Assembly (NCBI GenBank): GCA_032718475.1
Contig: JAUCBJ010002695.1
Coordinates: 17,905 to 81,904 of the forward strand
Length of the DNA stretch: 64,000 nucleotides
Source: Nemertoderma westbladi
Taxonomy: Eukaryota > Animalia > Xenacoelomorpha
Direction of reading: 5' to 3'
Below are positions 12,771 through 46,200 of this stretch, in pieces. The notes beneath the pieces were generated by a model. The model did not search any database and was not told where the DNA came from. It saw nothing but the letters and a program-made list of their open reading frames with translations. Position numbers and translations under genes: made by a program. Positions within the stretch are counted from its first letter, which is position 1; every line of letters starts with the position of its first letter.

Positions 12771-12839
12771 GAAAACTGGATTACCTTGCTGTAACCCTCA
12801 CTAACTCCAATACCGGTATTCGACTCGGCACGATAAAAC

Positions 12840-15763: not shown

Positions 15764-17101
15764 TACACAGTGCGAACCCCCTCCGGCCGTACTGTGACGA
15801 GAAACCGACGCTTGTCGACACCTCCAAACCACTCTCCAGTGCGGCTGAACCACCCACTTTGGGTCCGGACACCTCTACGTCCTCTAGTCCCATGGCCGCG
15901 GCGGACGTCGACCCCACCTGGTCACACAAAACTGTACATTGGGACCCCAAACTAAACCACAGCCCCCAAACTCGCCGATACCCCTCACGTCATCGTCAAC
16001 CACCTATGCGGTTATAAACTCCTACGGAGCTCGAAGGGGGGTGTAATGACATACATACGTATTATTATATGGCTCGCCCCATATTCATGCTGGACAGTAG
16101 TTCATGGTGATTGGATAGATATATATACGTTCCATTCTGTTGGGGCTTTTTATATAAAAGCAGGTGCAACGGCAGTAATACCATTGTGTACTGAAGTCAC
16201 TAGGCATATTATTATTATATATCGGTCTATTCTGTTCTATACATTTCTGTACGTTATATCTTATTATACAGTTATATCAAGAACTAAGAACATCACAGGT
16301 ATTGAAATAATATTAAATCAATGTACACTCGTAAAGCTGCAGCGAAAATATGTAGCTAATATCCTAGGTTACATATAAATTAATAATATTATTTTTAAGA
16401 ACATTAATTTTACTACTTTGCAAAAATTCAATTAAAAAATATCCAGACAAATATATTGCGGAATAAACTATTTCAGATTGTTAGCGGATTCAATTCCGCT
16501 AACCACCCCATAAAAGCCGGGAAACGGCGCCTTTAAGCAATATTGGGAAGCACGAGGTTGATTACCAATCAACCTCGTATCACCCCCAATAAACGGGGAC
16601 GACAAAGCCCAAAGGGCCGTATACAATAGGGGTCAGAGTTTAAGCCTCCGGGAAAGGGAAAGTGACAGTAGCAAAGGGGGAAACACTCCCACAGAGGTGG
16701 GAGCCGAGAATTAGGTTGTTGGCCAATGGGGGGCAAGCATCGACTGAGTAGTAAGGCCACAAAGTAGGTAATCAATATATATTACGGGTTGGTGTCATAT
16801 CACAGTTAGTTTACTCAGTCAGTTAGGGCAGTACGGTAACAGCGTAACTGCCGTCACCAACTATTCTATATCACCGTTTGTCTGCCATTTATTCAATATC
16901 TATCAACTGTGTTATCTGTTCTTTAATCATATACTATATTTTATATTCACCAATAATATCGGAACGACAATAAACCCATTTTCACTCACACGGCGGGGAC
17001 GCGTAAATAAACTAAAACCGGTCGGATCCTGTGATCCCGTCACAGTAATAAAATTACCAACTACCCAAAACTGTGACTGCCAGCCACCAGAGGAAGTTAA
17101 A

Positions 17102-20100
17102 GATGAGTCTAGAGGGAGAAAGAACACCGCCGCGGACCCCGGACGATGCAAACAAAACGATCCGCGAGGCCGCGACGTGACGGTATCGACCCAGGACGCC
17201 GGACTCGTCAACCCCGAACGATCCGGTAGCCCAAGCGGAGGGCGGCCGTCTACCACAAGGAGGGACGATCAAGTCAAGGGAAAGGAGAGACGAGTCGACG
17301 CACGACGGCGGTAGATGTACCGATGTCGCTGGCCAGCCACAGGCCGAGGGCGACGGACGGCCCACCGGAACGGCAATGGTGGGGCCGCCGGTACGACGCC
17401 GAACACGGAGATAAAGAGGGGATGTCGGCAACGGGGACGTCGGAGTCAGCGACCGGCTCCGACGAGCCTACAACGCAACCAGAAAGCAGCTGAGGGAAGC
17501 CAAAGAAGGGGCGAAGATGGACCAGGTGAAGTTAGAGAAGCGGCTAGGTGAGTCGAATAAACATTTTGATTATCTAGTGCGCTTTGGGCAGGGAGAACTA
17601 GCCAATGAGAGAGCGAGAGGGGTCACCACCGAACTGTTCGAACTGTGGGAATGTAGGGGTATGGAGCCTGGTGTAGTGTACATAGGGCCATACTTAGTCG
17701 ATACCCGGGGAATTAAGTTAGTGTGGTGGAGGGGACCGCAGGAGGGCGAATCCGAGATTAACCCCGAGGATTCGGCCTCGTCGGTCGGCGAGGATTCCAG
17801 AAAGCGGGGGAAAGTTAGTAGGACAGGAAGGCGGCGGGAGTCCGTCGCGACCGACAAGTCTGCTACATCCTCCGCAAAAGTAAGACGGGTGCTAGAAATA
17901 GATCTGGCGTGTCAGCTCGATCTGGTAGCGCTGGACCAGAGAGAATTAGAGAGGCAGTTGGAAGAAGGTAGTGCGTTACTAGAGAAAGAGAGAGAGCTGG
18001 CCAGAGAGAATAAAGAGAGGGCCGAGAGGGTCGCGAGAAAATTTAGGGAGTGTGAAGAAATAGGAATGAGGGAAAGGAAGGAACAAGAAGAGCGAGAGGC
18101 GGCAGAGGCGAGCGAACGTAAACAGCGTGAGGCGGCAGAGGCGAGCGAACGTAAAGAGCGTGAGGCGGCGAGAGAGGCGAGAGGGGCGAGAGCGGAGAGT
18201 GAACGTAAAGAGCGTGAGGCGAGAGAGGAGAATGAACGTAAAGAGCATGAGGCGAGAGAGGAGAATGAACGTAAAGAGCGTGGGGCGAGAGAGGAGAATG
18301 AACGTAAAGAGCGTCGACTAGAACTGGCGCAGATGGGGCTGTCAGAGAGCGAGGCTGGCTCGGGTAGTGTTTACGAGGAGCCAGAAGTTATGGAAACATT
18401 TATTAATACCCCACTTACAGGGACCGGACGACAGACCCAAGACTGGTGTGACCGTACAGGCGTGGGGGGGGGGGGGTAATAATAATACTGTAGAAAACGT
18501 TAATATTAATAGTACCGTAGTGGATAACCCTAATCAAACTTTCGTTGCAGGAAATAATATTTTGCCCGATACTAGTAATTTAAATCCGAACGATTATAAT
18601 TTAAACGTACATAGTAATCCTAGTAATTTAAATAATAATTTAAATCCGAATATACAAAATAATTCAAATAAAATAATTACGCAAAATAATTTAAATAATA
18701 ATCTTAATTCGAACGAACAAAATAATCCCGTTTCTAATTTAGGTGTGCAAAATAGTTTAATTGATTTAGAAGATAATATATAATAATGGTGCTATTAATA
18801 TAAACGTGGCGGACGCGGATGGCCCGGCAAATGAGAGCCTGGTAGGCCACACAGTTAGTAGGCAGGGAGCAACGGGGGTGAGAAACCCCAATGAGAGCCT
18901 GGTAGGCCACGTAATCAGTAGGCAGAAGGTGGCGGGGGTGAGAGAGCGCGACGGGGGCCTGATAGGCCACATAGTTAGTATGCAGGGAGTGGCGGGGTTG
19001 AGTCAACCTGAGGGGGGCATGGTAGGCCACACAGTAGTAGAGGGAGAGGCGGGGGTGAATAGACCCAGCCGCAGTGGAGTTAGTGCGTCGACTAGAGAGG
19101 GGTGTAGAGACGAAGTGAGAGGTAGCGAAGAGATAGGTGGCGAGTGGGGGGGGGGGGCTGCAGGAGCCCCACGACGATAGATTAGCGGCGAGAGGGGGGG
19201 GGGGGGGGCAGAGAGTGTCCCACAGGTGTCGGCGGATGATGCGTGGGGCGAATTACGTGAACCGCAGCACCCGGCGATGGAGAATAGTAGGGGGATTATG
19301 AGTATCCCCAGTGGCATGCGACCGAGTAGAGAGAGAGAGGTAAACGTCACGAGAGGGCGAGCGACGAGACGTCGAGCCCAATCAGAAGAGGGAAGAAGAA
19401 CAGAGGAGTTTAACTGGGAGGTCGACGAGAGATCTCACGAGCGGGGATACCTTCACTGCGGATAGAAGAAGGGAAGAGAGTAGAAGAAGTGTCGTCGCGA
19501 ACGACAGGAGAGCGAGGATGGATAGCGAGCCGTCGGTAGTAGAGATGGAGACGGAGAGTCAGTGGGGTCGAACTCCGGGAGATTGCCATCGTCCCGGGGA
19601 GACGCGACCTGACGAAGCGTACTACGCGCCGAGAGAGGGGTACAGGGTGTACCAGTACGAGGACGAGAGCAGTAGAGGGGATCGAAGAGAAACTTCCCGA
19701 CGGGATATACCTGCCGATCGAGAATACGGTAGCCGCGGGGAGGATTATTTGAGAAGGTTAAACTTCGATCCCGAGCGACACATACAGACTGCAGGAAATA
19801 CTGTAGGCCTTACTGCACATACTATAGGCCATGCTGGAAGAGATAATGTAGGCGATAGGGTAGCGTGGACGACGGGATTAAACCCGGAAGTCGCGGAGTA
19901 TATACCGGTAGGTAGGCTAGAAGTGGATAGGCCTATACCGGTACCAGCACAGCAGTATGACTACAGCATGCAAGGGCATAACATATGTCCAGGGGAGGGG
20001 AGATCGGATAGGTGCATGGGCCCCAATATATTAACATCAACCCCAGTATCAACAGGGTGACATTCCCCCATCGCAATATCAACAATATACTCCAATAGGA

Positions 20101-21340
20101 ACAAGAACATCGAACCACCCCCTGGACGAGAACATGTCATGCGACACCGAAATATGGAGGGGGCCGCTACCCCCTATGACATATCCATCCCAGAGAAAGG
20201 CAGCAGATAGGACGAACGGACCGCACCCAACAGGGGAATCTGTACAGCATCCATCGAACCCATTGGAAGCACAAGCAATGGGAATGGCTACATTAATCGA
20301 TGCATTAAAGACCAGGATCGAGTTACTGCCCGTGGAGCCGTTTAAATTCGATGGAAGTAGGCCGGAAGAATACCTGCAGTTTCGGCGCATGTATAGCAAT
20401 GAGATATTGACGAAGAACTTGACGCAGGCGGAGTGCCTAAAATATTTACAGGTGTATACAGGAGGCCTAGCATACGACATTGTGAGGCAGTACCAGGGCA
20501 TCGAGGGTGGCTTCACGACAGCATGGCAGGCGCTAGACAGGGAGTACGGGCACCCGGCCAAGATCATCCGGCAAACCCTGAGAGGTATAACATCGGGTGG
20601 CCTACAGGATAACCCCGTTAGCATAAAGACATTTGCGAACAAAGTCGAGAAGGCGCTAATCGTGTTAAAGACGCTAGACGCGCCATACGAACTCAACGCG
20701 TCTAATAACATCACCATTATAGCGCAGGCACTTCCGATTTGGCTGCGCAATAAATAGAGGAAAATCGCTTTCTCCACTCGAGAGAGGAAGGGTGCTGAAC
20801 CGGGCCTAGAAGAAATGTCGAGCTTCCTTAACTACGAAGCCGAACTCATAACAGACCCAGTCTATAGCGAGGATAGCCTGGGAAAGGGACCAAAGACCGA
20901 ATACAATAGGCCGAAACCAGAACATAACACGGCGAACGCATTGCCAAAGCTCAGGCAATCGCTGCCATATGCGGCGACGCAGGGGACTGCTAGTCCACAT
21001 GTAGCTGGGGGTAGGCTGCACCATGGAGCGGACAGGGGAAAAATAACAACACAAACAAACACAACACTAACACGCCCGGTAGGCTGAACCCAAGTAATAA
21101 AAACAGTAGGGACTTAGGTACAAATGCAAGTGCGATATGCAGCGCACTATACAAGGATGGCTACAACCCAAACAATAAATGCCAATTGCACACGAACGCA
21201 CTTCATCAGACAATGAACTGCAGATATTGGCAAGCACTACCCAGAGAAGATCAGACAGAATACGCAAGGAGGAACGAAGTTTGTTCTCGATGTGTGACGG
21301 GTGGACATAGAGCCAACCAATGCAAAGAAACGCCAATCAA
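17102..21340 (+). pseudogene. BEL/Pao gag with a very long low-complexity N-terminal extension
   Basis: E/R coiled-coil repeats, an Asn-rich tract and 60-bp repeats, then the Pao gag core (KFDGSRPEEYLQF…LKYLQVYTGG…AWQALDREYG) and the knuckle CSRCVTGGHRANQC. Several stops and frameshifts. Confidence 0.8.
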
Positions 21341-23055
21341 GTTCGGTCAAGGCAAAGGACAGACGATGGCAACAAGCACCGTAGGGGCCAAGAAGAGAGG
21401 AACGGTACTACTCGGGGTAATACCAGTGTGGGTGATTGGGGAAGGCAATCGATCAGTACCCACACTGATGCTGGTCGACAGTGGAGCAGCCTTCACGTTG
21501 GTTGAGAATTGGGTGGCCGAAGAGATAGGATTGAGGACGAGGCCAAGTAGAATGGCGGTAACAACCATCTCCAGTAAAGATGTGGTCCTGGAGATGAGGA
21601 CTGGACGGTGCGGGATAGCAGCGATAGCACTGGGATACGACTATGGGGCGACCATCGACCCCATCCAGGTGATAGAGTCGATAAATATCAATGCCAGGCG
21701 ACCAACCAACATCGAGGTAGAACAATACAAATTCCTGGACAGTATCGACTTCTCAATACCAGACGTGGACGTTAGGAAAGTATCCATTATTGTAGGAATG
21801 GACTGCCCGACGGCCCACGAGAGAATGCAGACGGTCTTCGGCGAAGACAGGCAGTGTGACCCGGTGGCGATTTAAACACCATTCGGGTGGACGCTGAGCG
21901 GCCCAATCAGAAGCAAAATACCGTTTAGGATGTTGGAGACATCAGGGTGCACGTTCGCGGGAACTATGCGGGAGATGGAAGATGGAGGAGCGGAAGAGCA
22001 GCTCAGAAGACTGCTTAGGCAGGATTTTGAGGGATTGAAAGAGACCGGGGTCGGAACCTCGGTAGAAGATAAGCAGGCTTTACAAAGCGTAAAGGAGTCG
22101 ATGAGGTGCGACGAGTGGCGGTATACCATAGGGATGGTATGGAAACTACCAAATCTACCGCTACCCGACAACAAAGGAATGGTACTCACGAGGCTTCGTA
22201 AGTTGAAGCAAACGCTAAGACGGAGCCCCGAAAAGAATGAGTACATTCATAAGACGATTAGGAAGTATGTCGAGAAGGGATGGGCCGTAGAGTTACCGGT
22301 CGATGACCCGAACACGGACAGGACCTATTACCTGCCACTCCACGTGGCTCTAGATCCGAAGAAAGGTAAACTGCGGATGGTAGTTGACGCATCGGCCAAG
22401 ACCGACGTCAAATGCCTAAACGATTATCTGCTGGAGGGTCCCAATATCTATAACTCAGGGATCGAGGTCCTACTTAGATTCATGAACGGGAAGCACGCCT
22501 TCACCTGCGACATCGAAGGCATGTTCAACCAAGTCCGTGTAATGGAAGAGGATAGCGACAGTCAGCGACGAGGAACCGTCGACAATACCAATGTACAAGA
22601 TGGTGGTGCAGAACATGGGGGCCAAGTTGTCCTCATTCACGACGACTGTGGCCGTGAGAAATACGGTACAGGGTAAAGAAGAGAGATACAGCGCCAAAGC
22701 CGTCGATATGATTCGACGCGGCTTCTATGTAGATGACGGGATTGAGTCTGGAAACACGGTTAAAGAACTACTGGATACAGGGCGCGAGGTTCGCGACATC
22801 CTGAAAGGATCTGGGTTTAACCTGACCAAGTTCCAGTCCAGCTCGGAAGAGTTTATGAGAGCCATAGAGGACAGGAGGCCAGAGTCGACCATGGATAATC
22901 CCATGACAGCCAAGGGACAGAACATGGCGAACAAAAGTCCCAGCAGAAGGCATTAGGGATCGTGTGGAACCGAGAGACAGACAAGTTGAAGTACCAGTTG
23001 AGCCAGGAGGGCGCGGACATCCACACAAAGAGGGGCTATGTATCATACATAGCGT
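21340..23055 (+). pseudogene. BEL/Pao protease and reverse transcriptase
   Basis: LVDSGA; TPFGW; YYLPLH…KLRMVVDAS…LNDYLLEGP; CDIEGMFNQV; FYVDD; GFNLTKF; LGIVWN. Confidence 0.92.
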
Positions 23056-23078
23056 GGGCATGCATGGGCAAGCGTGGG

Positions 23079-23634
23079 CATACATGGGCAGCCTTGAATA
23101 GGCTTTCCAGGATTTGGAAGTCACCGAGAATTGATCTGAAACTTAAGGTCCGATTATTTAGAGCAGCAGTAGTTCCAGTACTCCTCTACGGGTGTCCATG
23201 CTGGGCTCTAACTGCTGAGGACACCAAATCTCTGGATGGCACATTCACTAGAATGCTACGCCGGGTTCATTGTGTCAAGTACAATGCACACATCTCCAAC
23301 CAGACACTATATAACATTGGAGGTGTCTCATTGGTTCCCCCAAGCTTGACACTAGAAGAAAATCGCCTCCGCTTTGCAGGACATTGCTTTCGCCGTGAGG
23401 ACCAGCCAGTGCATAATCATGTACTTTGGCAGCCTCATGGAGTGAATAAGCATGGTAGACAGCCCATGACTTTCTTGAGATGCATCTTAAAGCACACTGG
23501 CCTTGAAGATGCGGATGATCTAGCAAATTTCATTGGTGATAGGGAGTTGTGGCGGCGCAATTTTGTCAACAAGCCGGCCCAGCATTCTTAATAATGCAGC
23601 TGCAATGCAGCATGTCGATCCTAGTAGTAATAGT
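23079..23634 (+). mobile_element. RTE-type LINE 3' portion nested in BEL pol
   Basis: PVLLYGCPCWALT…LDGTFTRMLR…RLRFAGHCFR…DRELW; TAG tail. Confidence 0.9.
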
Positions 23635-24125
23635 TTGTACAGAACGGGCAGTAAAATCTTGGGTCTTTGTTTTGTACAGAACGGGCAGTAAAGTCTTGGG
23701 TCTTTGTTTGTACATAACAGGCAGTAAAGTCTTGGGGCTTTGTTTTGTACAGAACGGGCAGTAAAGTCTTGGGTCTTTGTTTTGTACAGAACGGGTAGTA
23801 AAGTCTTGGGTCTTTGTTTTGTACAGAACGGACAGTAAAGTCTTGGGTCTTTGTTTTGTACAGAACCGACATTAAAATCTTGGGTCTTTGTTTTGTACAG
23901 AACGGGCAGTAAAGTCTTGGGTCTTTGTTTTGTCAGAACGGGCAGTGAAGTTTTTGGTCGTTGTTTTGTACATAACGGACATTAAAGTCTTGATCTTTGT
24001 TTTGTACAGAACGGGTAGTAAAGTCTTTGGTCTTTGTTTTGTACATAACGGACAGTAAAGTCTTGGTCTTTGTTTTGTACAGAACGGGCAGTAAAGTATT
24101 GGGTCTTTGTTTTGTAATCACCCTG
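23634..24125. repeat. 37-bp minisatellite (~13 units) ending in a Tc1/mariner-like terminus
   Basis: Unit TTGTACAGAACGGGCAGTAAAGTCTTGGGTCTTTGTT. The end reads TA|CAGGGTGATT on the minus strand. Confidence 0.9.
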
Positions 24126-24175
24126 TAGGCGCTTTTGATTCATGCCTTTGACTCACTATTAACTATCATTTCACC

Positions 24176-25312
24176 GACAGGACAATTGCCCCCCGGACAA
24201 TCCCCCCCCCCCCCGGTCTATTTCCCCCTGGGCAATTGCCATCGGACAATTGCCCCCCAGATAATTGCCCCCAGGACAATGACCCCCTCGAACTATTGCC
24301 CCCAGGTAAGGTTTTTTCGGCCATTAGTCAAGGGATTACTACAAAGTCTGATAACTTGTTTCCAGTGCGGTCCCCCCTAGAACTATACTCCCAAGAGAAA
24401 TGTAAATTTAATGCAACCACTACTCCAAGGTGGGAGGGAACCTCACATTTAGTAAATATTATTTTTTAAATATAGGTCTGACAAACATACCTTTTACGCG
24501 AATTTGCTCCAACTTATTTCAAATTAAATATTAAATATTAATACAATTATTATTCACTACTTTCTTAAGGTAGCAATTTGTAAAATTTAACAAACACACC
24601 TGAGATTTTGTAGATATTATATTTTTGATAGTAAGATACATATAAATATATATTTTGTAATACTTATATTAATTTATTTAAATAGATTTTATTTTCATAT
24701 TCTTGCAGATGCCTTTTTCAAAATAATTATATGCCTATTTTTTATAGCATTTTTAGGTTTATTAACATTTACTATGTTTAAAAAAATAAGTTTTTGTTAA
24801 TTTCATGAATAGCATATTTGACTAACCAACAACACAGTTTGAATTCCTTGTGAGTCGAAAAAATTCGGCAAAAGCATCCACAATATCCACATATTCATAC
24901 TGTTTCAATTTCCCTCCCATTTTCTAACATATTTTATATCATTGAAAATAATATGAATTAGGTTCTGTTTTAATTGAAATAATCAAATTGTAACAAAAAT
25001 GTCTTATTATTGATTATGAGTACGAGTGTTCTATCCTATATAGCATCGAATACATCGTTTTTATTAGAATTGCCATACCATTTCTTAATAAAGAAGAGAA
25101 TACCAATGCAGTAATTCAAAATATGAAAACTACAGTATAATAATTAAATGTATTTTTTTGGTTAATTGTAAATTTTCTAGCTCATGGTGCAGGGGGTATT
25201 TTTCATTTTTTCACACTTAAAGTAATTTTTATGTTGATTTCGGATGGAAAAGCAACTTTTTAATTGGTAGACAAATAAAAATTCAACAAAAACTAAAAAT
25301 CGGCCCACCCTA
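24176..25312. mobile_element. DNA-transposon debris: GGACAATTGCCCCC subterminal-type repeats (24180-24305), AT-rich filler and a …CGGCCCACCCTA end
   Basis: About 7 short direct repeats. Non-coding AT-rich DNA replaces part of the BEL RNase H region. Confidence 0.5.
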
Positions 25313-25318
25313 GCTCAT

Positions 25319-27332
25319 AAGCCCAGACTTGCATTCAGCAAAGCAAAGTCGACACCGCCAGATTCAGCATCGGTCCCGAAACTCGAGTTGACAGCAGCGA
25401 GGTTAGGATTAAGGGCCACGGCCTACCTGATGGATGCTATTCCCAACATAGTGGAAACACACTACTGGACGGACTCCATGGTAGTGCTCGATTGGCTACA
25501 CAATGAAAGGACGAGATACCCTATATTCGTCGCGAATAGGGTGGACGAAATAAGGGCGATGACGAAGTTGGAAAGGTGGCACTACTGCCCAACGGACGAG
25601 AACCCAGCGGACTTGTTATTGTGGGGCATGGCACGCCACACTTTCTTGAAGAAGGAAGTATTGTGGCAGCACGGGCCACAATTCCTGAACGACAGAACAG
25701 CCTGGCCACCGATGAAGAAGGTGGACCCGGGCTCAGAGGAAGTAGCACTAGAGGAGGAGGGAGGAGACTCAGAAGGCGAGGAGATATATAGCCAGATGGT
25801 GAGGGAGATAAGGGACGTGCAACCAAAACCGGAAGAACTGTGCGATAACCCGACAGACAAACTCCTTAGATACAGCTCAAGTTGGTACAAGACCAAGAAG
25901 TTAGTGGCGTACTGGAGAGCCTTCGGGAACTTCCTAAAAGGGGTCGGCCAAGACACCAAGAACAAACCAAACGTCGATCTGGAGGGAGCGGCCAAGGCCG
26001 TAATCCTTTACGAACAAAGAAAGAGCTACGGCGACGAGGTGGAGCGAATCGGTAAACAGCAACATCTCCGACGGGACAGCGAGCTGATCGCGGTGTCGCC
26101 ACAACTCAATGATGATGGAATCTTAGTAATGAATTCTAGAGTGCTAAATAATAACAGCCTCATTATACCACCAAAACCCATCATCATCCCTAATAAATCG
26201 CCGATAGTGCACCAGATCATTTGGGACTCCCGCAAGTCGATATTGCACGGGGGCACCAACCGGACCCTCACGGAGATACGGAGGACCTTTTGGATCACAC
26301 AGTTGAGGAAGAAGGTAAAGGCGGTGGTGGAGCAGTGCCAGATCTGCCAATGGACGAGAAAGGAGCAGGCCTTACAGGAGATGGCGCCACTACTGGCCAG
26401 TAGGGTGAGACAGCACGACCCGCAATTCACACACTGCGGTGTAGATATGTTCGGGCCGATAAAGATTAAGGTGATGCGGCACACGGAGAAGCGCTACGGC
26501 ATTATCTTCGTATGTAATAACACGCCGGCGGTAGGGATAGAACTCGCCCAAGACGCAACCGCATCGGCATTCATCAATTCCCTAGAGAGGTTCAGAGACC
26601 GCAAAGGTGGGACGATCGCAGTAATGTACTCGGATAATGGAACCAACTTTGTGGGGGCAGAGAACGAGCTGGCAGAGGCCTTGGACATCCTGGAAGGGGA
26701 GGAAGTCAGGGCAGACGACGACAGGTGAAGTGGGAGAGGAGGACGCCGTATGCTCCGCATACTCTAGGATGCGTCGAGAGACTCGTGGGTAGTTCTAACC
26801 GTCTGATGACGAAGTTGATGAACACCCACATGGTAACAGAGGACGTACTAAGGACGGTACTAGCAAAGTGCGAGGGTATCATTAATAGCAGACCGCTATA
26901 CCCAGAAAATGATGACCCAGAATCATTAGATGTGCTGACGCCAGTCACTTTCTAATGGAGAGGCCGGCGAACATCGACATGTGGGGTGTAGACCCAGACG
27001 ATATACACTCCCGACAGAGTTGGAAAGTTGCTAAGGCGATAAGCGCGGAGCACTGGAGGAGGTGGGTCGAGGAATATCTACCCACGCTTCATAGGAGGAG
27101 CAAGTGGAGAAATACAAATAGGGAGTTGAAAGAGGGTGATCTGGTGATCGTCATGGACGATACCATCATCAACAACCAATGGAGATTGGCGAGAGTTGTG
27201 GGCACTTACTCCGATGAGGACGGAAGAGTCCGATCGGTAGAAGTGCGGATAGGTGGAAAGATAGGAGCGAAAGATAGGAAGACCTACAGGAGGGCTGTAG
27301 GGAAGTGTTGCCTTCTAGAGGGCGCACCATAG
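25319..27332 (+). pseudogene. BEL/Pao RNase H C-terminal half and integrase
   Basis: SKAK…VPKLELTAA; WTDSMVVL; FVANRV; NPAD; HGG…CQIC; GVDMFGP; SDNGTNF; ERLVG; INSRPL; WRRWVEEYL; WRLARV…DGRVRSV. Two frameshifts. Confidence 0.95.
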
Positions 27333-27439
27333 AGTTTAGTCGTCCAAGTGTTGGACTGAGGGGGGTGGGATTGAGGGCGAGATGCCCTTCCTACACACAA
27401 AATATAAAAAAAAATAATAAATAAAGAAAGAGAAAGTAA

Positions 27440-29225
27440 TAGTACGTAGTAAGTAAGTAGGCAGATAGAAGTTAGTTAGTAAGAGGGTACGTAGTACCGT
27501 TAGTAAATTTAGTTAGTAAGAGGGTACGTAGTACCGTTAGTAAAGTTAGTTAGTAAGAGGGTACGTAGTACCGTTAGTAAAGTTAGTTAGTAAGAGGGTA
27601 CGTAGTACCGTTAGTAAAGTTAGTAAGAGGGTACGTAGTACCGTTAGTAAAGTTAGTTAGTAAGAGGGTATGTAGTACCGTCAGTAAAGTTAGTTAGCAA
27701 GAGGGTACGTAGTACTGTTAGTAGAGTTAGTTAGTAAGAGGGTACATAGTACCAGTCTCAGTCACGGCCCAATCTCCTCCAATGAACGCAGTCTGTTCGC
27801 CCTTTCCCCACGGATGGCAGGAATGGGACTGCGGAATCCCGCAACCGAGGCCCCACATTCATATGCCGTATCACGGGCGGGAACCAGATCCCTTGCCGAG
27901 GCCATTTTGGGACACCGCGAGTTCTCCAACGCGCAACACCTCGGTTGTCTACAGAGTGCAAGGAAGGAAGGACGGGAGCAGCAGCTTGGGAGAGAGAAAT
28001 CCAACTTGGAAGCTGTGCTGGAGGAACTGCAACTGGACCGCCGGCGGACTGTACAACGTACCGCCGACTTCCGTTCGAGTGGGTGGATCTCCTTCCTGCC
28101 CATGGCCGACCACCAGATGGACTTGTCCCCCCTGGAGTTCCGGGATGCGCTGGCGATCCGATACGGCCGCCCCCTGGCGGCAGTGCCAAGCCAGTGTGAT
28201 GGGTGCGGGGCCGCCTTCAATTTAAACCACGGTTTAAATTGTAAAAATGGCGGCCTCGTTATACAGCGCCATAACGAACTACGGGACGTGGTTGGAGACC
28301 TCTCGGCTATGGCTTTCGGACCTCGAAACGTAGTCTGTGAGCCGGTTGTCCGCGAGCAGCAGGGAGTGGAGGGTGCCGCAGGTCTTCGGTGCGATGTGGG
28401 GATACGGGGTGCGCTAAACCCACAGACCCAGGCGTTGATAGACATTCGGGTTATCAACCTTGACGCCGGGTCCTATGAGGGTCCCAATGTCTATCCTCAA
28501 GTCGGCCGAAGACCAAAAGAAGCGGCTGTACGCGGAAGCAGTGACGGTACGACGGGGCGACTTCTCCCCATTTGTTGCGTCCTGTGACGGCGTACTCGCT
28601 CCGCAGGCAAACCACCTCCTCCGTATCTTGGCTGATAGGCTGCACCGTTCCTGGGGGCGACCTTTCAGCACCATGATGGGCTGGGTCCGAACTCGCGTCC
28701 AGTTCGCGATAATACGCGGGGCCTCCCATTGTCTACGGGGCTCACGGGTGAAGTGGAGAAGTGGGCAGGGGTTTGAGGATGGTGCTGGGCTGCCAAGCAG
28801 TATTTAGAACAGCTTTGGAGCCTTGGCTGTACTGCTATCTTTAGACAATCAATATTAATGCTAATATCTCTTTTACTTAACGTTTGTATCTCTTTGCGTT
28901 AATGTGACTTGATTTCTTAACTAAATGCTTGTAATGTGCAGCTTCAAAATGTCTAATATTATTAATATACTGAGTGAGTTAGTACGTAGTACCAGTTAGT
29001 AAGAGTTAGTTGGAGAGTTAGTTAGTAAGAGGGTACGTAGTACCGGTTAGTAAGAGTTAGTTGGAGAGTTAGTTAGTAAGAGGGTACGTAGTACTGGTTA
29101 GTAAGAGTTAGTTGCAGAGTTAGTTAGTAGTAGGAGGGTACGTAGTACCGGTTAGTAAGAGTTAGTTGGAGAGTTAGTTAGTGAGAGGGTACGTATAGTA
29201 CCGTTAGTAGTAAGAGTTAGTGGTA
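27440..29225. repeat. 37- to 47-bp tandem array (AAGAGGGTACGTAGTACCGTTAGTAAAGTTAGTTAGT), split by an insertion at 27757-28975
   Basis: Units start at 27481, 27518, 27555 and onward, and resume near 28976 with longer units. Confidence 0.92.
27757..28975 (+). mobile_element. 5'-truncated CRE-like non-LTR retrotransposon (Zn knuckle and restriction-like endonuclease)
   Basis: SSGWISFLP…FRDALAIRYG; CDGCG…HGLNC; RHNELRD; RCDV…IDIRV; E.QKKRLY; FSPFV. One frameshift near 28480; AT-rich 3' UTR. Confidence 0.88.
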
Positions 29226-29735
29226 GGAGGATATTTATAATATAGTATATGGTAAGAATTAGTAGAAATCAGTTGGGAAGTCAGTAGAGTTAGTGGTAGG
29301 TAGCGAGAGGGGGGCACATGGGTACAGCTGGATAAATCGTGTAGGCCACACGATACATACTGCTGTACTGCACAGACCCATAGAGTAGTCTAGAAGATGG
29401 ATTACAAAGTAGAATAATCCATTACCAGACATTGTGTTATCAATGTTGTAGGATAAAATAAAATATTTGAATTAAATAAAACAGAAAATTAGACAAATTA
29501 TGGTAACAGTAGGAGAAATATTCTGGAACATAATTAAAGTAACGGACAGAATTACGAAATTTAGTAGAATTTGGCACTTTTAGAAAATTAGGGTAGGAAA
29601 ATTAGGCGATAACCTAACGTACAGTGAGAAATAGGCCATTATCGGACAGTACAGACCATCGAAACCACATCACTCATTTATTATTGTGCCTTGGCAAGGC
29701 CCCACCTTATAGGTGAGCGATCGGAAGAGTTGGAA

Positions 29736-32053
29736 ATGGCAGAGAAACTGGTCAGAAAGAGAAAGGCGGAGTTGGGAGGGAAGGAGATACTGGTGGATTT
29801 CACCGAGAGGCATCCGGAAGAAAATATGAGGGGATACTATGAGCGGTTAGAGAGGGGTAACAAAACGAGAGCGCTGCAGGACCATTTCAGGGAGGTGCAC
29901 AAACAGCGACTGGTCGGGACCTACGGGACACCGTCACTAGACAATGCGATCTTCGAGCATTTCCACTACGTGGTGAAGGGAGACGAGGCGAAGTTCGGGA
30001 TACCGAAGTACGCAAAGGAGCCACCGAGAAAGGATTGGAAGAGGTTCGTAGAGTCCGTCAGCAGGGGAGGATACATGGTCCTAGACGATGAGGGGACCGT
30101 GGAAGTGGAGGAAGGTTCGAGAAGAGGGTCGACAGGGTCGGCCAGAACCATACTCCTGCATTTGGCCGCACCAAATGGGGATATATTCCTGTTCGATCTA
30201 GGGACGTATGGAAAGAAGAACGGACCGAAGTTGAACCGACTGCCAAAAGCGGTGCAGAGTCTAGTAAGGGAGAAGTCGACGATAAAGGTGGGATCGGCGA
30301 TCCGCGACGATGCGGAGAGGATCATCGGTCCGGAGACCCCCAACCTCCTGGATACGCAAACAGTCTACATGGCTATGACGGCGCCAGACGGGTTGGGACT
30401 AGTGGAGAACGCAGGCCATTGTGGAGCGGTGGCGATGGGCCAGCTAATGGAGCTCGTATGCCACAAACCAATGGACTGGGGTAAATTCAGGGAGGAGTAT
30501 GGAGCGGAGTTGGCAAACTCGCTGAAGTGGGGAGCGAGGCCGGGGAAGCAAGAGGTGTATCAATTCCAGAGAGGCGCGATAAAGGTATATCAGAAGCAAT
30601 ATATCCTGCAGGAGAACTGGATTATGATAGGTTTGCTAAACCTATTCATCAGAGAGAACCAACAGCATTCCTGCTATCGAGATCACCCCTGAACTACAGA
30701 AGAGCCTTCAGAGTGGCTTTCGAGGGTCTGGTAGACCACCCGGGGCTGAAGGGCGAGTCGGTGTATTATAACTGCCGACATCTAGTAGACAGGGATGTGG
30801 ATATGCCATATCAGAGGTGGGAGCAGCTAGAGGCGGATAGACGAGAAGCGAAGCGATTGGAAGAAATCGCTAGACGAGAAAGGAGAGAGGCAGAAGAAAG
30901 GGAGGAGGCAGATAGGGCAGAGAGCTACGGGTTCGAGGAACAGGCGGCCTTAGACGAACTTCATTGGACATCATCAGCGAGTTCAGGTGAGTCTCTAGGG
31001 CGAGAGTTGGGGTGGACGGTAGGGTCACCGAAACAGTCAACATCGGGACTGCATGCGACGCCCATACCAGCGGGCGCCGAGGGCGATTTCGCGCAGAGGA
31101 GACCGGGGGAGCTGGAAGGATGGAAGATCACGGGCGAGAGCCAAGGTGGGAAAGGACACGGTGGATCCACCGGGATACCGGGATTGGAGCCACTCCCATA
31201 GGAGGACGAGGATGACGACGAGTTCGGAGAGATGCCGCCCATCGGGAGGATCGGCCACTCTGACATGGACTGGGTTGGCGGGAGGGTGGTGACGGCCAGT
31301 GGGGCGAGAGCCTTCTAGGATAGACCCGTCAAGCGGGCCTGGGTGCATGAGGAGCCGGTGATGGATTTCGCGGGGAGCACCATCAGGTTGGGCGAGCAAC
31401 CGGGAATGGCACCACGAGTAATATTCGGAGAGACGATGCCCAGGAGGGGCGAGGAGATAGACGTGGACAGGGACGCTAACGTCCAAAAGTTCGCTTACCA
31501 GCGACTCCACAGACCGAGGAGATCGCTTGGGACGAAAGACGATGTGGGGCGGGAGACATTGGTGCTCGGCTGCAATTACTGCGGGAGGCAAACTCACCAG
31601 GAAAGGAGCTGTTTGTACCGATTCCAGAAAGGGACTAGTTGTCTCTACTGCCGCGAGTCGAGCCACAGGATGGGGGCGTGTCCAAGGTTGCACAACCGGT
31701 GTTCCAAGTGGAACTTCCAGGGGCACTACTGACGCCAGTGCAACTGGATGGACGATGAGGAGAAGTTTAGGATCTTCGAGGAATGGGCCGATGTCGGCGC
31801 CATGACGCGGCAGCGTATGAAGGCCCAGGAATTCTGGTGGGGCTTCTTTAATATCAACCGGGAGGCCCACCTGGAGATTATTAAACGGAGACTTCCGTTT
31901 ACCTACCAGGAGGTGTCAACGGCGGTGTCGTATGCCAGGGTGATAAATACGCCAAAGGGGGAAGCAACAGGGCCATTCGTAGGGGCCACCCGCGAAGCGA
32001 TACCGGGAGCTGATAACACCAGCGCCCAAGGAGTCGACAATGGGAATAAGTAG
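29736..32053 (+). pseudogene. Accessory ORF of the BEL/Pao element: DEDDy 3'-5' exonuclease-like domain, coiled coil and three CCHC zinc knuckles
   Basis: VLDDEG (ExoI), LLHLA…IFLFDL, LPKAVQSLV…KVGSAIRDD (ExoII), LLDTQ, QKQYILQE (ExoIII-like); CNYCGRQTHQERSC, CLYCRESSHRMGAC, CSKWNFQGHY*RQC. One frameshift near 30680 and three stops. Confidence 0.75.
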
Positions 32054-34309
32054 AGAGCTAACGGCGAAGGTCAGAAACTTAAAAGGGGATAAGAACAAGG
32101 GAGCGGCAACGACCAGGAAACAACCAAGAGAGGAGGACGATAGAGGGAAGGAGTTGAGATGGTTCCCAAAGTCAGGTGGAACGAACTAAGACTTGGCTAA
32201 TACCAGAACCTAAGTGATACGAACTCCTAAGTGCAAATTTAATTAAAAGTGCAATTAGTATGTACGTATGTAATAATCATCAGCATAGTCGCATAGCAAA
32301 TTTATAATCAAAGTAAGTACTATAGTCTTATAACCTTTTCCAATTAGCTACTGGGATTGGGGACCAATTGACTATGACAGGCCAAAGACATTAGATGACT
32401 TCACACTTCTTGAGTGCGACGGCACAGGAGGGGAGGGTGAGGCCCGTCAGGAGTGAGTAGGTGAGATAAATGTTGAGTACAGGACGCGCGGAGAGAGTGC
32501 GGGTCCAATTCAAGTAATTCAAGTATGGGGGGGGGAGGAGTAAGAGTTAGAGTGGAGTTAGAGTGGAAGAGAAGTTAGAGTGGAGTTAGAGTGGAGAGAG
32601 TGTTGTTGAAACAAAATTCTGTGAGAGAAACCACAATTGGCTCGACACCGAGACGCCAGATGTCTTGGTGCAACATAGGTGAAGTTGCACCAAGAGAGGG
32701 TAGAAATATCATACCCATAGGGAGCGGCCTGGAAAGCCGACTCCAAGAAAATAACTCCACCCCACACACGGTAGTAGACCGGATTCCAGCGGAATTGAAG
32801 CGCACTCGAGGTTGATGCTATCTTCTCACCGGGAAGATAGCATGGGGGGAGTGTTAGCGGATTCAATTCCGCTAACCACCCCATAAAAGCCGGGAAACGG
32901 CGCCTTTAAGCAATACTGGGAAGCACGAGGTTGATTACCAATCAACCTCGTATCACCCCCAATAAACGGGGACGACAAACCCCAAAGGGCCGTATACAAT
33001 AGGGGTCAGAGGTTAAGCCTCCGGGAAAGGGAAAGTACAGTAGCAAAGGGGGAAACACTACCACAGAGGTGTGAGCCCAGAATTAGGTTGTTGGCCAATG
33101 GGGGGCAAGCATCGACTGAGTAGTAAGGCCACAAAGTAGGTAATCAATATATTTTACCGGTTGGTGTCATATCACAGTTAGTTTACTCAGTCAGTTAGGG
33201 CAGTACGGTAACATTTTATTACCGTAACCGCCGTCACCAACTATTCTATATCACCAGTTGTCTGCCATTTATTCAATATCTATCAACTGTGTTATCTGTT
33301 CTTTAATCATATACTATATTTTATATTCACCAATAATATCGGAATGACAATAAACCCATTTTCACTCACACGGCAGGGACCCGTAAATAAACTAAAACCG
33401 GTCGGGATCCTGTGACCCCGTCACACAGATATAAGCCTACAACAGCTATGAGTATTTATGTCATTATATCTTCTGTCACCTGAGATAATAAGTAATACAA
33501 CATTTATAGTATAGAGTCAATAGGAATTGAAATACAGGCAGTGTGGTTGGAGTTATGTCTGTGTTGCTATAGCAATACTACTGGCTGCCTATTACAGTAC
33601 AATTCCCCTCTGCCCTGGTAAGGCTACACCAACATCTCCCAGACAGCTAGCAGCTCTACAGTACACTCCCGCAGAGACTATGTTGACCAATAATGGGAAG
33701 TATTATATTTTACTCAATAATTGTGCCGCTTTAATAACGTTTAGATCAATTAAAGATCCATTTATTAAAGCAAATCATTTGAACTAATAATGGAATGTAT
33801 AACTTTTATAGAACTATAATGGAATGTTGTATGGGGATTACAGCTGTATAACTTTTAAGTGTAATTATTTAAATCTTATACTAGAAAATAATTAATATCC
33901 TTTAAGGAGGCAGGTTGAAATTTATGTTGTTACCCTAATCAACTTAATTAACTAATTAACTGCTATTATCTTAGCTTCTCGAAGGCCGAAAATTCAACTT
34001 GGAAAATTTCTAAACTTTGGCCAGACTATATGTGTACCAAGTTTGGTTAAATTTCGTTAACATTTGGCTGAGTTATTAACGTTTAAAATTGGACACGACA
34101 GAACGACAGAACGACAGAACAACAGATCAACAGAACAACAGACACACCAATTGAGTTAGTGGTACCTGTATGCTAAGCTCGCGTACTTTCGTCGCTCGCC
34201 CCACAGGCCACCAGAAAACGCAGATTTGTACAATTGTGAACACATTTTATCAAATGTGTACCAGTGTAATGTAATGTTGTTGAACGGGACAATTGAACAT
34301 AATTGAAGA

Positions 34310-40799: not shown

Positions 40800-41249
40800 A
40801 TGCTGGGCTCTAACTGCTGAAGACACCAAATCTCTGGATGGCACATTCACAAGAATGCTACGCCGGGTTCATTGTGTCAAGTACAATGCACACATCTCCA
40901 ACCAGACACTATATAACATTGGAGGTGTCTCATTGGTTCCCCCAAGCTTGACACTAGAACAAAATCGCCTCCGCTTTGCAGGACATTGCTTTCGCCGTGA
41001 GGACCAGCCAGTGCATAATCTTGTACTTTGGCAGCCTCATGGAGTGAATAAGCATGGTGGACAGCCCATGACTTTCTTGAGACGCATCTTAAAGGACACT
41101 GGCCTTAAAGATGCAGATGATCTAGCAAATGTCATGGGTGATAGGGAGTTGTGGCGGTGCAATTTTGTTGACAAGCCGGCACAGCATTCTTAAAAATGCA
41201 GCTGCAATGCAGCATGCCGATCCTAGTTGTAGTAGTAGTAGTACTAGTA
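40800..41249 (+). mobile_element. RTE-type LINE 3' fragment, same family as 23079-23634
   Basis: Near-identical sequence and a (TAG)n tail. Confidence 0.92.
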
Positions 41250-41519: not shown

Positions 41520-44500
41520 AGGGAGAATTATTGTACATGTTGAACAGTTTGTATATCCACTTTATTTGGGTGTTTCCATCTGAAAGAGTCTGAAGGTTCT
41601 GCAGAACATCTGCATAAGTGTTCCATGTCAATCTTTCAAATTTTCATCTCATTATTTAAACCCAGACAAATTGCAACAAACCAATTGCGTCCAATTGGCT
41701 CATCCCAAATAACAATCTTTATGTTATTTATCTGTACTTCTCCCTGTGGATCAGCATCAGGCACAGGTTGAGGAACTGCTGCATCCGAATGTAAGTCTGT
41801 ATCAAGCTGGTTGATGACACTGAACAAGGCTATCAAATCTTCTTCATAGAGAATTGGGTATTATTCATCTTTGGGTTCTACTGGGTCATTTGCGATGATT
41901 ATTGCTAAGTGCGCTTTCATTTCAGTGATGGATATCTGGTTCAACTTGTAGAATCTTGGCCTTCGTTGATAATCATTAGGGGAGGAATGTCTTCGGTATG
42001 AGATCTCAGTCCTCAATACAGTTTTTAATTGTTCATCATTGTTCTTATATTTCAATATACAATTCTCGAGTTCCTCAATATAGGTAAAAGGACCACCCCA
42101 AGATTTACATCGACGTAACTGGTTGGTAGCATATTCAATAGCAGTTCTCTCTTTATTTTTTGCTTCCAGAAGTTTTTCTTTACGAACATAATCTTGATCC
42201 TTTATCCAAGCCTTTTCACGATCATCGAGAACCTGTAATTGAACAAAAAATAGAAGAATATTGGAAATGTTTTTAAGGTATAATGTACTTCATGGACATA
42301 AGATACCGGTGCTGTAGACAAGTTGGATCACACATGCATATATATATATATATGTATTTCCAATGGCTAATGCAAGAAGTAATCTTAATAATAATAACAC
42401 TCACCCTTGTAATATGTTTAGTGGCTCTTTCAACTCCGGTTATTGAAGATGCCTTGAATAAAGTCATTTCATATTTTATTCCCTTTGCAGTGAAGTGTCG
42501 TGAGGAGCAACTAGCAGATCTTTTGCAGAGTCAATCAAACTGAGAAAGGTCCCGCTCTGCCTCTAAGTTGTTTACTGAAAGTCCATCTAACTCTGATGGA
42601 GATAAATCACTAAGCACTGTTGCTCTCGGCTGTCGATATGGTTCTGAGAAACCATATTCTCTACCACGTTGAGTTTGCAGATCTTTTGCTGCTTGTTGGC
42701 AAAACAGGTTTATAAAGAGTAGAACCAGATCATTAGGCTTCTTGATGATGAATGAATAGTCAACCATATAGTTTATGAGAGTGTCCATAAACGAGTGTAC
42801 ATTAACAAACGACTAATCAAATCTACTGGAAGCATATTACCACAACTCAACCGCCCACATGAGAACAGGCATAAGGGTGTACACTGAACCTATCAAACTC
42901 GGCAAAGGAATACGGCAAGGAGGCATACTATCTGCCTGGCTCTTAAATTTCTACTTACAAGACCTCTTCGAGACCCTAGGAGAATCTGGGCTAGGACTAC
43001 ATCTCGGCACAGAATCTTACCCGGCCCTTGGTTACGCCGACGACCTATTGTTGCTAGCAAACCTTAAGGATGATCTCCAACAACAAATCGACATATGCAC
43101 CACGTTCTTTGCCAGAAATGGCCTCATTATAAACACTAAAAAATCGCATTACGTAAGATGTACCGGTACACAACCAAAAACAACACCAATTGAAGGTACG
43201 CAACCAAAAACAACACCAATTGAAGGCTACACCATACAAGTAGGATCAGTTTTCCTACGCGAGGAGGCCAGCTGTAAATACCTAGGTTTACCACTTCCAG
43301 GTGCACCGCAAACGATCAGAGACCACATAACCAAGCGCTGCTGGTGGATCGTATCAAGGACGCGATCACGGGGCCTAACAGCCCACGACGTACCTCTACA
43401 AATCACCAAAAATATCTGGAACACAATCTGCCTCCCGTCTATCGCATATGGTATTGCAAATATGGATGATGCCTCTGTGACCCAACTATCAATAGTAATG
43501 CGAAAGGCGATGAGATCGATCATTGGCGTGGGGAACTACGTCTCAAACAACACCCTACATAATCTGTTGCGATGCGACGACCTGGAATCAATCATCGCAC
43601 ACAGCAGATGTAGACTCCTGTACAGCGCCGTAAACTCAGGAAACATAAAAATTGCACATCTCTACACAACACTGCTTAGCCAACACCTATGCTATACCTG
43701 CACAGAACCAACTTTTGTCGAATACTCCATTGCGAGTTGGAGGAGTAACCTACCCACCCTACGCAGCATCGTAACAGCCTCCTACAACATAAAACTGGTG
43801 ATCAAGGGCTCACGAAAACACTGCAAGCCCATCCTGAGCACCAAGGACTGCTTCAACACGTGGTATCTCGAAAGTAACCTAAATATTCCAAACGCAAACT
43901 ACTCCATAAAGAACCAATGCATACGAGACTACTACAAGCTGCCGACACTCGACGCAAACAACCAAACAGGTTTCACACGGACTCACGTTCAACTCCACCA
44001 CATAACAAGCACACAAATCACACGCATTTCCGATCATGACAAATACTATTTGATTTCCTAATTCCCACCTCCCTATAGTCTATAATTATATTCATTTGTT
44101 TTGGTGCATACAAACAACACTTGTGCCTTCAACAACCCTGTGTGTAATAGTTACACCCGTACACCTTATAGACACTACCATCAGACATCGTATACCCACT
44201 AATTATACAGGTAACATGTGACTACAATGTAATGTAACCAATAGCATTGTTAATTTTGATTTTGTCGATTGTGTTCTGTTCCGTTTTTACTTGACCGACC
44301 ATTTTATACAATAATAGCCGCCGGGGCCTCAAGCCGGTAGGTAATATAATTAAAAAAATAGTTGCAAGCTTTTAAATCTTTATACAGTTTGGGCAGGAAC
44401 TGCACCAAGTCGTTCTGTGTTGACTTTTCAACCATATTCAAAAAGGGCATTGTCACCTTCATTGTGAACAATGCCAAGCTTAGCAATTCTGCTTCAATCA

Positions 44501-46200
44501 ATGGGTGCTCTACATAAAGCTTACAAGTCTGAACCAGGAAATTCTTTCGTGTAGTATTATTCAACAACTCACGGATATCATCAAGATGGTAAATAATTGC
44601 AGCTGCTGTATATCCTAGCTTTGCAAATCTTCTTTCAGTATAGATACTGAACTTCTTTGAACGATTACTTTGGATAACCTGAAGATCAAATTCCTCCCAC
44701 AAAGATGATTGTTGACCATCATTTGTCACAAGTTTCTGGATGGCTACTATGACAGCTAATGCAACACTTTTTTTTTCTGGGATGAAGGATTTTAGTACTG
44801 GAAGCCGAGATAACAAAGCCTGCTTCAGATTCGCCTTGTTTTCGAGCTCTAAAATAACTTTTAAGTTTCCTCGATCAAAAACCTCACATGTATGTGAAAC
44901 ACACAGCAATTGTAATGGTATATGATGTGTAAGCAATGTTTGTGCAACCATCTCTGCAACATTCAATTTTTTGGAGACACTGTCTGTCATTAGGGCATTC
45001 ATTTTTTTCCATAGAGCTACTGCAGTTGACTCTCCTGCAATTGCCAAGCGATTAAGAACTTCAACAAGCAGTGTTGTAATTGATTCTCTTGTTTCCCGAC
45101 CCAGAGTATGCGGACGAACTCTAAATGATTTCCCATTAGATAGTTTCATTATGACTGCGGGCCAGTCTCCTTCAATTCGTCTCCTTTTTGTTGTATCAAA
45201 GTGTAGTGTGATTTTGTCACCCTCTGAAGCATCAAGAATTCCAAGAGCTGCATTTCTCTCCTCCTGAATTGCCAACAAGTGTTTTTGGTTATCAATTACT
45301 CTTATACTGGGTAGCACATTGGCATACCGCAAATAATCAGATGCTTTGCGTGGAAGCGACTTTTCGGGCTCAAGTCCAGGCTCATGATCACCTTCATTTG
45401 ATCCATCATCTGCAGTCAGCTGGTATCTATGGCCAAATATAATTTCTGTTGTAGCTTGAAAAGCACGGCAACTTTGTTCAATAGTAATGGCTGCCCTAGC
45501 ACATGCAGCAGCCAAACCTGTCTTTACACTGGGAAGGAAGTTTCGAAACCCCGATCTCAACTGGAACATGGATGGGTTTAGTACATAATCAGTTTGTGTA
45601 TAGGCATTTATGGTAGGTTTACTATCACGTACTAAACCAGAACGATTGAGTGATTGGTCAAGTCTGACATTGCTCAATATGGGACTACTCAAAACTAAAT
45701 CCTCTTCATCGAATTCTTCAGCTTCCATTTCAGCTGCTGCCTGCTTAGCAATAGCTTCTGCTGCACGTTTCTCTTCATATTCTTTGTCTAACTTGTCACA
45801 CAATGCCATTCGACGGGGCCCCATCTGATCAAAATAAAATTCTCGTTCTGGTCCATTTTTCAGGATCTACATTTTTACCTAGCAGATCTAAGAGCTTTTT
45901 GTGGTCCCCTTTCCAAATTGTAAGATTTTGCCTCCTTGAACCAGTTTTCTTGCACTGAACCTGAGTTCGATATGTTTTCAAAAATCCATCCAACTTGTAT
46001 CTGATGTTCCGGATAGTCATGACTGTCCCTTCACCAAAGGCCTTTTGCCACTGGAAATTCAGAGCCTTTGCACAGTTCATAATCATGCTGCTTTTGACTC
46101 CCATACGTTGGGGCATGTTCTATAATAGCCATAACACAATCTGACACCATTGGTAAATAGTCACCAAAGACAAAGAGAATCACATCTGGCATGGTTAGAA
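41520..46200 (-). pseudogene. hAT-superfamily (hATx-like) transposase, split by a LINE fragment; coding pieces ~46200-44360 and ~42790-41520
   Basis: LHFDTT…MTDS…LLCVSH (CxxH)…RRFAKLG…PFLNMVE, then RGREYGF…NNLEAER after the insertion. Candidate GGGGTAG termini near 40663 and 46545. Confidence 0.75.
42790..44358 (+). mobile_element. 5'-truncated non-LTR retrotransposon (RT C-terminal half, ORF 42859-44061; clade uncertain, RTE-X-like)
   Basis: GIRQGGILS; LGYADDL; KYLG; 3' UTR ending in a CCGG…CCGG hairpin and an A-rich tail. Confidence 0.85.

Follow-up and report, generated by a model that had tools for sequence, protein, structure and literature searches.

A predicted DEDDy-type exonuclease with zinc knuckles in the env position of a BEL/Pao retrotransposon from Nemertoderma westbladi

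A BEL/Pao retrotransposon of the animal Nemertoderma westbladi carries, downstream of pol and at the position of an env gene, a third gene whose residues at 30072–30647 place it in the DEDDy 3'-5' exonuclease family (PF01612 type). We refer to this gene as “ORF3”. The exonuclease region is under purifying selection among copies, and we are highly confident that ORF3 is the selected DEDDy cargo of a multi-copy family. The ORF3 product is somewhat likely to be an active RNA exonuclease. The fuller reading, that ORF3 is under selection and encodes a predicted 3'-5' exoribonuclease which binds RNA and likely acts by trimming or destroying silencing small RNAs, stands in our view evenly balanced between right and wrong. 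All coordinates refer to “the window”, i.e., the whole 64,000-nt stretch of contig JAUCBJ010002695.1 that was analyzed.

The host element spans positions 16479–33425. Its 5' LTR (16479–17044; 566 nt with TG...CA ends) and 3' LTR (32852–33425; 574 nt), both on the plus strand, are identical at 549 of 565 aligned bases. TG...CA LTRs that share a target-site duplication are a feature of LTR retrotransposons; here the duplication is CAGAT (plus strand, left copy 16474–16478, right copy 33426–33430). A polypurine tract (32844–32851, plus strand), which is also heavily covered by contigs of other copies, adjoins the 3' LTR. Between the LTRs lies a broken gag-pol region (17103–27332, plus strand), interrupted in this copy by many stops and frame changes, in which DUF1759, aspartic protease, reverse transcriptase (RT), a Peptidase_A17/RNase H part, an integrase zinc finger and DUF5641 can be recognized. 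The Pfam matches over the cut-off are DUF1759 (E 2e-10), DUF5641 (E 6e-25) and Peptidase_A17 (E 1.5e-5), and the RT motif YVDD is found at 22726. PF05380 is named as the Bel/Pao RNase H in the available text of PMC3985635. Because of the Pfam gag-pol domains and the YVDD motif, we assign the element to BEL/Pao; within its pol, protease is followed by RT, RNase H and integrase, and the domains are of the BEL/Pao type. The integrase-end ORF stops at 27332.

The pol region holds one or more later insertions (23055–25310, edges approximate), consisting of a LINE fragment, a 37-nt tandem array and AT-rich DNA, with a weak Pfam match to DUF6451. One LINE family has left its 3' end at three places in the window: 23083–23634 (inside the element's pol), 8251–8547 and 40800–41236. 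Once two later insertions are subtracted, the element is ~13.5 kb long, compared to the 4.2–10 kb given for Belpaoviridae (PMC8742986). By sequence inspection, each LTR starts with two 9-bp inverted arms separated by a 6-base loop (16480–16503 and 32853–32876). There is no TGG-starting primer-binding site next to the 5' LTR (17045–17070).

Several other mobile elements are found in the window. On the minus strand at ~50136–46697, a sister family is represented by its 5' LTR and the beginning of its gag, cut off at 46697 and hence without pol or ORF3; its gag region is 69–78% identical to that of the present element. The sister LTR shares only its ends with the LTR described here: both have the same last 12 bases, followed by GT. 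The sister (at ~49495) likewise has no TGG-starting primer-binding site after its 5' LTR, and these sequences suggest that the priming of both elements may be unusual. A different BEL/Pao pol (~53580–50345, minus strand; Peptidase_A17 E 4e-33, DUF5641), with ~30% protein identity, ends ~200 bases before the sister LTR. Directly 5' of the element is an uninterrupted, 996-codon gypsy-type RT–RNase H–integrase frame (12773–15760). Elsewhere, there is an open frame of 520 codons with no Pfam match (44307–45866, minus strand), an ISXO2-like transposase fragment (2959–3591) and an EB-module-like frame (5522–6358) whose best stretch (E 2e-5) is under the Pfam cut-off.

The gap between pol and ORF3 is 2.4 kb and holds a later, LINE-like insertion within a tandem array. 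The left part of the array follows pol and has a 37-nt unit (27469–27753); the right part has a 51-nt unit (28982–29221) and is ~70% like the left part. Between them is the 3' end of a 5'-truncated LINE-like element (~27755–28980), which differs in composition and has zinc-finger and restriction-like endonuclease motifs, with no significant Pfam match; all three features are on the plus strand. We presume that this fragment resembles CRE-type restriction-like-endonuclease elements. Since related arrays lie on both sides of the insertion, the pol end is tied to the ORF3 leader. Further downstream is a candidate splice-acceptor region (29671–29713, plus strand), with one AG (29697–29698) after a pyrimidine-rich run and a second AG at 29711–29712.

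ORF3 itself occupies 29736–32053 on the plus strand (2318 nt, ~772 codons, beginning with ATG at 29736), broken in this copy. An initial annotation, made from the sequence alone, had described a sense-strand ORF of about 770 codons between the integrase stop at 27332 and the 3' LTR at 32852, within LTRs flanked by CAGAT, and this placement stands. It had also described one frameshift and three stops. The frameshift is located at ~30650, and only two in-frame premature stops are present (31199 and 31730); because the frame breaks at ~30650, the stop at 30690 is a mere run-on of the shifted frame. The absence of an env-like transmembrane segment was likewise borne out: the most hydrophobic 19-residue windows in the two pieces of ORF3 reach only 1.07 and 0.27, and on the strength of this low maximum we consider ORF3 to have no transmembrane segment. 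As the annotation had stated, ORF3 has no terminal inverted repeats, target-site duplication or tail of its own; all direct or inverted matches between its flanks (29241–29760 and 32041–32851) are ≤9 nt, and there are no A-runs of at least 6 in 29250–32850. The codon style that the gene was said to share with gag and pol is shared with pol, with trinucleotide distances of 0.25–0.29 to the element's RT, RNase H–integrase and integrase end, compared to 0.39–0.66 for five other coding stretches. For the gag and protease pieces, the distances are intermediate (0.36–0.43).

None of the protein searches identified a relative of ORF3. Pfam returned no family for its N-terminal piece or the core of that piece, three word-based protein searches gave 0 matches, and no relatives were found in PDB sequences, plasmids or phages. 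Four matches among 1.84 billion representatives were all bacterial repeat proteins, matching over one short stretch only, and the single metagenome locus recovered encodes a bacterial protein that is unrelated and shares 8 residues by chance; all were rejected.

Four lines of evidence (the ESM Atlas, profiles, hhalign and an alignment) nevertheless identify a DEDDy-type 3'-5' exonuclease domain at 30072–30647 on the plus strand, in agreement with the initial annotation. First, 24 of 30 feature matches in the ESM Atlas are clusters carrying PF01612, the remaining six having no common family. The best named cluster, annotated as a WRN-like exonuclease, shares 178 features with the query at a score of 0.93, and PF01612 is found on 38% of its members. 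Second, we fetched 40 bacterial PF01612 regions, dropped one that was DnaQ-type (L104) and one in the wrong frame (L116), and built one pooled profile from the remaining 38 proteins and four subgroup profiles. The pooled profile scores ORF3 at 14.4 bits, with E 9.3e-7 for a single, targeted comparison; the same score across 24,736 families would correspond to E ~0.02. Neither the 2000 global nor the 2000 local shuffles include one that reaches this score (the highest values are 3.6 and 4.1, respectively), and tiles of the window that lie outside ORF3 score ≤2.3. The subgroup profiles are weak, with the query score reached by global shuffles in 1/2000 cases for WRN-like, 38/2000 for RNase D, 194/2000 for NrnC and 774/2000 for PolA. 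Third, hhalign matches motifs I and II to 29 bacterial PF01612 proteins with a probability of 88.7 (E 2.6e-6). A hand-made motif pattern, by contrast, was discarded: it matched 0 of 100,000 shuffles, yet it had been fitted to the query, and only 3 of the 40 bacterial proteins matched it.

Fourth, a 33-sequence alignment places the catalytic motifs, all on the plus strand. Motif I contributes Asp 30084 and Glu 30090, motif II contributes Asp 30309, and the motif III region contains Trp 30528, Gln 30591, Tyr 30600 and Glu 30612, the last in the column usually occupied by Asp. The motif order proposed earlier (VLDDEG at 30078, KVGSAIRDD at 30285, LLDTQ at 30345 and YILQE at 30600) is confirmed throughout, and the fourth acidic column holds Glu, the replacement of the last Asp that had been noted. 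The motif I Asp-x-Glu and the motif II Asp fall in columns D19, E21 and D94. Six columns are invariant when the query is included (D, E, D, W, Q and Y). ORF3 keeps six of the ten columns that are invariant in the bacterial set and differs at four, including the fourth acidic residue; in one column where the others all have Gln, ORF3 carries His. With respect to the Tyr-x3-Asp of motif III, the Tyr and the upstream Gln and Trp align, with Glu in the Asp column. The codon immediately after this Glu (30615) is altered only in this copy, and the family's full motif III therefore cannot be read from the window alone. Identity between the ORF3 exonuclease and the bacterial groups tested is 16–19%, and ORF3 has two insertions before motif III. 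We accordingly assign the domain at the level of the DEDDy family and to none of its subfamilies. An HRDC domain, which follows the exonuclease in Rrp6/RNase D proper, had no Pfam match in 30689–31198, although Pfam misses the exonuclease as well.

Structure prediction adds compatibility with this assignment. A single-sequence AlphaFold model of the exonuclease had a pLDDT of 31 and no usable fold. A model folded with the DEDDy alignment reached a pLDDT of 75.8, and its top Foldseek matches were only DEDD-type exonucleases (Egalitarian, trypanosome RND and EXD2), with eight tied structural rows (Z 12.0–12.8, rmsd ~3). Because this model was built from a DEDDy alignment, its fold matches are circular and show compatibility only.

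The C-terminal part of ORF3 has two further features on the plus strand. A Glu/Arg-rich charged helix (30809–30919) may be a coiled coil or a single-helix spacer; the charged stretch underlying the earlier coiled-coil call is real, with 65% of its 37 residues charged, but fits either structure. It is followed by three zinc knuckles (31571–31741), two of them complete Cx2Cx4Hx4C motifs (31571 and 31640). The third (31700) is degenerate, as had been noted, with W in place of the second Cys and a stop. The knuckle region has 10 basic and 2 acidic residues among 58, lies ~300 residues downstream of the exonuclease, and matches Pfam zf-CCHC_4 with E 0.052, under the cut-off.

Copies of ORF3 elsewhere were surveyed with contigs from four DNA runs (from at most three samples, one of which is possibly the window's source) aligned to 29250–33430. 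Sampled words of this stretch are present at 24–34% in three of the six DNA runs listed. The four runs yielded 8099, 5590, 5248 and 88 contigs, mostly 80–99% alike, covering 30 of 30 bins from ORF3 through to the 3' LTR. Continuation into unlike DNA is seen for 1% of the contigs from the three deep runs, against 30% for the shallow run, and 92 contigs have a length variant in the purine tract beside the LTR start. None of the contigs in the four runs spans pol to ORF3, the whole of ORF3 or the whole stretch. For most of the LTR, summed contig depth falls below that of ORF3. Depth is not equivalent to copy number, and the lower LTR depth fits diverged subfamily LTRs but also other carriers of ORF3.

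The damage to ORF3 is specific to the copy in the window. The stop at 31199 is different in 99–100% of the depth in the three deep runs; the fourth run has one covering contig, in which this variant is absent. At 31730, the stop is different in all of the depth in all four runs. At ~30650, contig depth collapses, and the one contig spanning this point keeps a single frame. Since the stops differ elsewhere and the frame break coincides with this collapse and with a single frame in the spanning contig, we conclude that the breaks arose in this copy.

Variation among copies indicates that the exonuclease region is under purifying selection. We considered the 40 best-supported of 106 variant rows in 30040–30720, and dropped one beyond the frame break. 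Among the 39 rows listed, 32 vary among copies and 7 are private to this copy. Three trends emerged: (i) 28 of the 32 listed among-copy sites are at codon position 3 (p 3e-10 versus one third); (ii) 26 of these 32 are synonymous (p 5e-8, with 34% expected even for transitions only); (iii) six of the seven listed private changes are non-synonymous (Fisher p 0.0017 versus among-copy sites). The listed rows form two clusters rather than independent events, and the comparison is not a formal dN/dS. In addition, only 1 of the 12 indels listed is in ORF3, even though ORF3 makes up 55% of the stretch. The knuckle half has only 3 segregating sites among the variants listed. Given the many covering contigs, the copy-private breaks and the mostly synonymous variation, ORF3 is best regarded as family cargo rather than a private insertion; the survey did not reveal a family of copies lacking the ORF, an independent insertion or a host gene. 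Selection among transposing copies, in turn, implies that the gene helps the element.

Exonuclease ORFs have been described in other retroelements. As the initial annotation had mentioned, DEDDy ORF3s are published for the Juno and Vesta LTR elements and the Terminons of bdelloid rotifers (PMC5408684), and these rotifer elements are also covered in the available parts of PMC5718144, PMC6338049 and PMC6431247. Like the gene described here, the ORF3 of Juno and Vesta is a non-env gene downstream of pol in an LTR element, encodes an RNase D-like DEDDy exonuclease with one acidic position changed to Glu, and has a function that is predicted only. There are also clear differences. The carrier is BEL/Pao here and Juno/Vesta or Penelope-like in rotifers, the active-site motif is D-E-D-E here and DEED in rotifers, and the rotifer ORFs have no coiled-coil domains and no described CCHC array. 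In the same study, the env-like and GDSL ORF3s of rotifers showed mostly neutral variation (PMC5408684).

A second parallel is the Trypanosoma brucei RND enzyme, which, like ORF3, has a DEDDy exonuclease followed by C-terminal CCHC knuckles. According to the available text of PMC7797062, the knuckles raise RNA binding and cleavage, and RND trims small guide RNAs. As described there, RND is encoded by the host, works in mitochondria and has four knuckles joined by a short linker, whereas ORF3 has three knuckles, ~300 residues downstream, and belongs to a mobile element. RND is among the tied top structural rows of the alignment-driven, and hence circular, model (Z 12.2, rmsd 3.0, 162 aligned), and the likeness seen is one of architecture. 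With the other PF01612 proteins (WRN, EXD2, Nibbler/Mut-7, EXD1, Egalitarian and NrnC), ORF3 has in common the motif order and invariant residues, the nearest named Atlas cluster being WRN-like; it differs from the bacterial groups of the family in its low identity, its two extra insertions and the Glu at the fourth acidic site.

Bel/Pao elements encode gag and pol, and some of them an env-like gene as well (PMC8742986; available part of PMC3118150). The present element resembles Belpaoviridae in its LTRs, its polypurine tract, its protease–RT–RNase H–integrase order and the presence of a third gene after pol. It differs in that this gene is predicted to encode a soluble, nuclease-type protein rather than an env-like one, in its length and in the canonical primer-binding site, which was not seen here. 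We found no report of a DEDDy exonuclease in BEL/Pao, although such cases may exist in Repbase, in subscription journals or in the supplements of PMC3118150. The newness for BEL/Pao that the annotation had suggested met no contrary report, but it is narrowed by two precedents, the DEDDy ORF3s of rotifers (PMC5408684) and the combination of an exonuclease with CCHC knuckles (available text of PMC7797062). What is new is the carrier class, the orphan sequence, the active-site variant, the triple knuckle and the evidence of selection.

How might ORF3 act? ORF3s are typically expressed from a spliced subgenomic RNA (PMC5408684), and since acceptor-like sites are present at 29698 and 29712, we infer that the same may be true here. 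The predicted enzyme would use its Asp-Glu-Asp-Glu residues and the Tyr for two-metal 3'-5' trimming. By analogy with trypanosome RND, the basic knuckles could hold single-stranded RNA and pass its 3' end to the active site, and the substrate would be the small RNAs that silence the element. Such a counter-silencing role is a tentative proposal, to which we give appreciable but less than even credence.

An alternative that we consider unlikely is that ORF3 is a weak or dead nuclease that, in the manner of Egalitarian or EXD1, serves as an adaptor by binding the element's RNA and localizing, protecting or packaging it, with the charged helix as a spacer or partner-binding arm. The Glu in the motif III Asp column and the His in the otherwise invariant Gln column would be in keeping with lost activity. 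In the available text of 10.1101/2025.08.03.668247, Egalitarian has a full DEDDy signature but functions independently of it, its catalytic residues being dispensable, and EXD1 is inactive. Egalitarian is also the first Foldseek row of the alignment-driven model, but only rank 15 by Z (Z 10.8, rmsd 3.1, 155 aligned). Against a dead nuclease, all four acidic positions of ORF3 are acidic, the motif III Tyr, Gln and Trp are kept, and no active-site codon is among the variants listed.

The product could instead be an active enzyme that takes part in replication within the particle, either by trimming primers or the 3' ends of RNA or cDNA, or by proofreading for RT; we regard this as improbable. 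Neither the element nor its sister has a TGG primer-binding site, and because a canonical site is missing, priming may need processing. The knuckles are nucleocapsid-like and could, by analogy, bring the protein into particles, and 3'-end processing was proposed for the rotifer DEDDy ORFs (PMC5408684). Other BEL/Pao elements, however, lack a gene of this kind and still replicate (PMC8742986), and ORF3 lies apart from gag-pol, 2.4 kb downstream. Diversity among copies is high, which counts only against strong proofreading.

It is very improbable that the main vehicle of ORF3 is a different or non-autonomous element, or that ORF3 is a captured host gene, and that recombination joined it to the present pol in this copy only. 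The lack of contigs joining pol to ORF3, an LTR depth mostly below that of ORF3 and the occurrence of rotifer DEDDy ORFs in unrelated retroelements (PMC5408684) would allow it. On the other side, related tandem arrays connect the leader of ORF3 with the end of pol, ORF3 matches pol in composition, and it shows neither terminal repeats nor a duplication or tail of its own. Many contigs run from the 3' UTR through the polypurine tract into the LTR start with 1% (deep runs) entering unlike DNA, none of the joints listed skips ORF3 cleanly at its edges, and protein searches gave no host-like relative.

Returning to the proposal that ORF3 acts on silencing small RNAs, its most specific form is that a BEL/Pao lineage swapped env for a fast-evolving, orphan D-E-D-E exoribonuclease with a triple knuckle, arrived at by convergence with trypanosome RND, that degrades or mis-trims host piRNAs or siRNAs. 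We offer this speculatively and consider it doubtful. If true, an animal retrotransposon would encode an enzymatic suppressor of small-RNA silencing, which would help to explain the high copy number of the family.

The presence of ORF3 in this element extends exonuclease cargo from the rotifer Juno/Vesta and Penelope-like elements to BEL/Pao. Because the BEL/Pao case has a different active-site variant and has knuckles, the repeated capture of DEDDy exonucleases by LTR elements looks general. The signal of purifying selection among copies is an addition to what was learned from the rotifer ORF3s, and ORF3 offers a compact domain with which to ask if retrotransposons of animals make enzymes directed against the small-RNA pathway.
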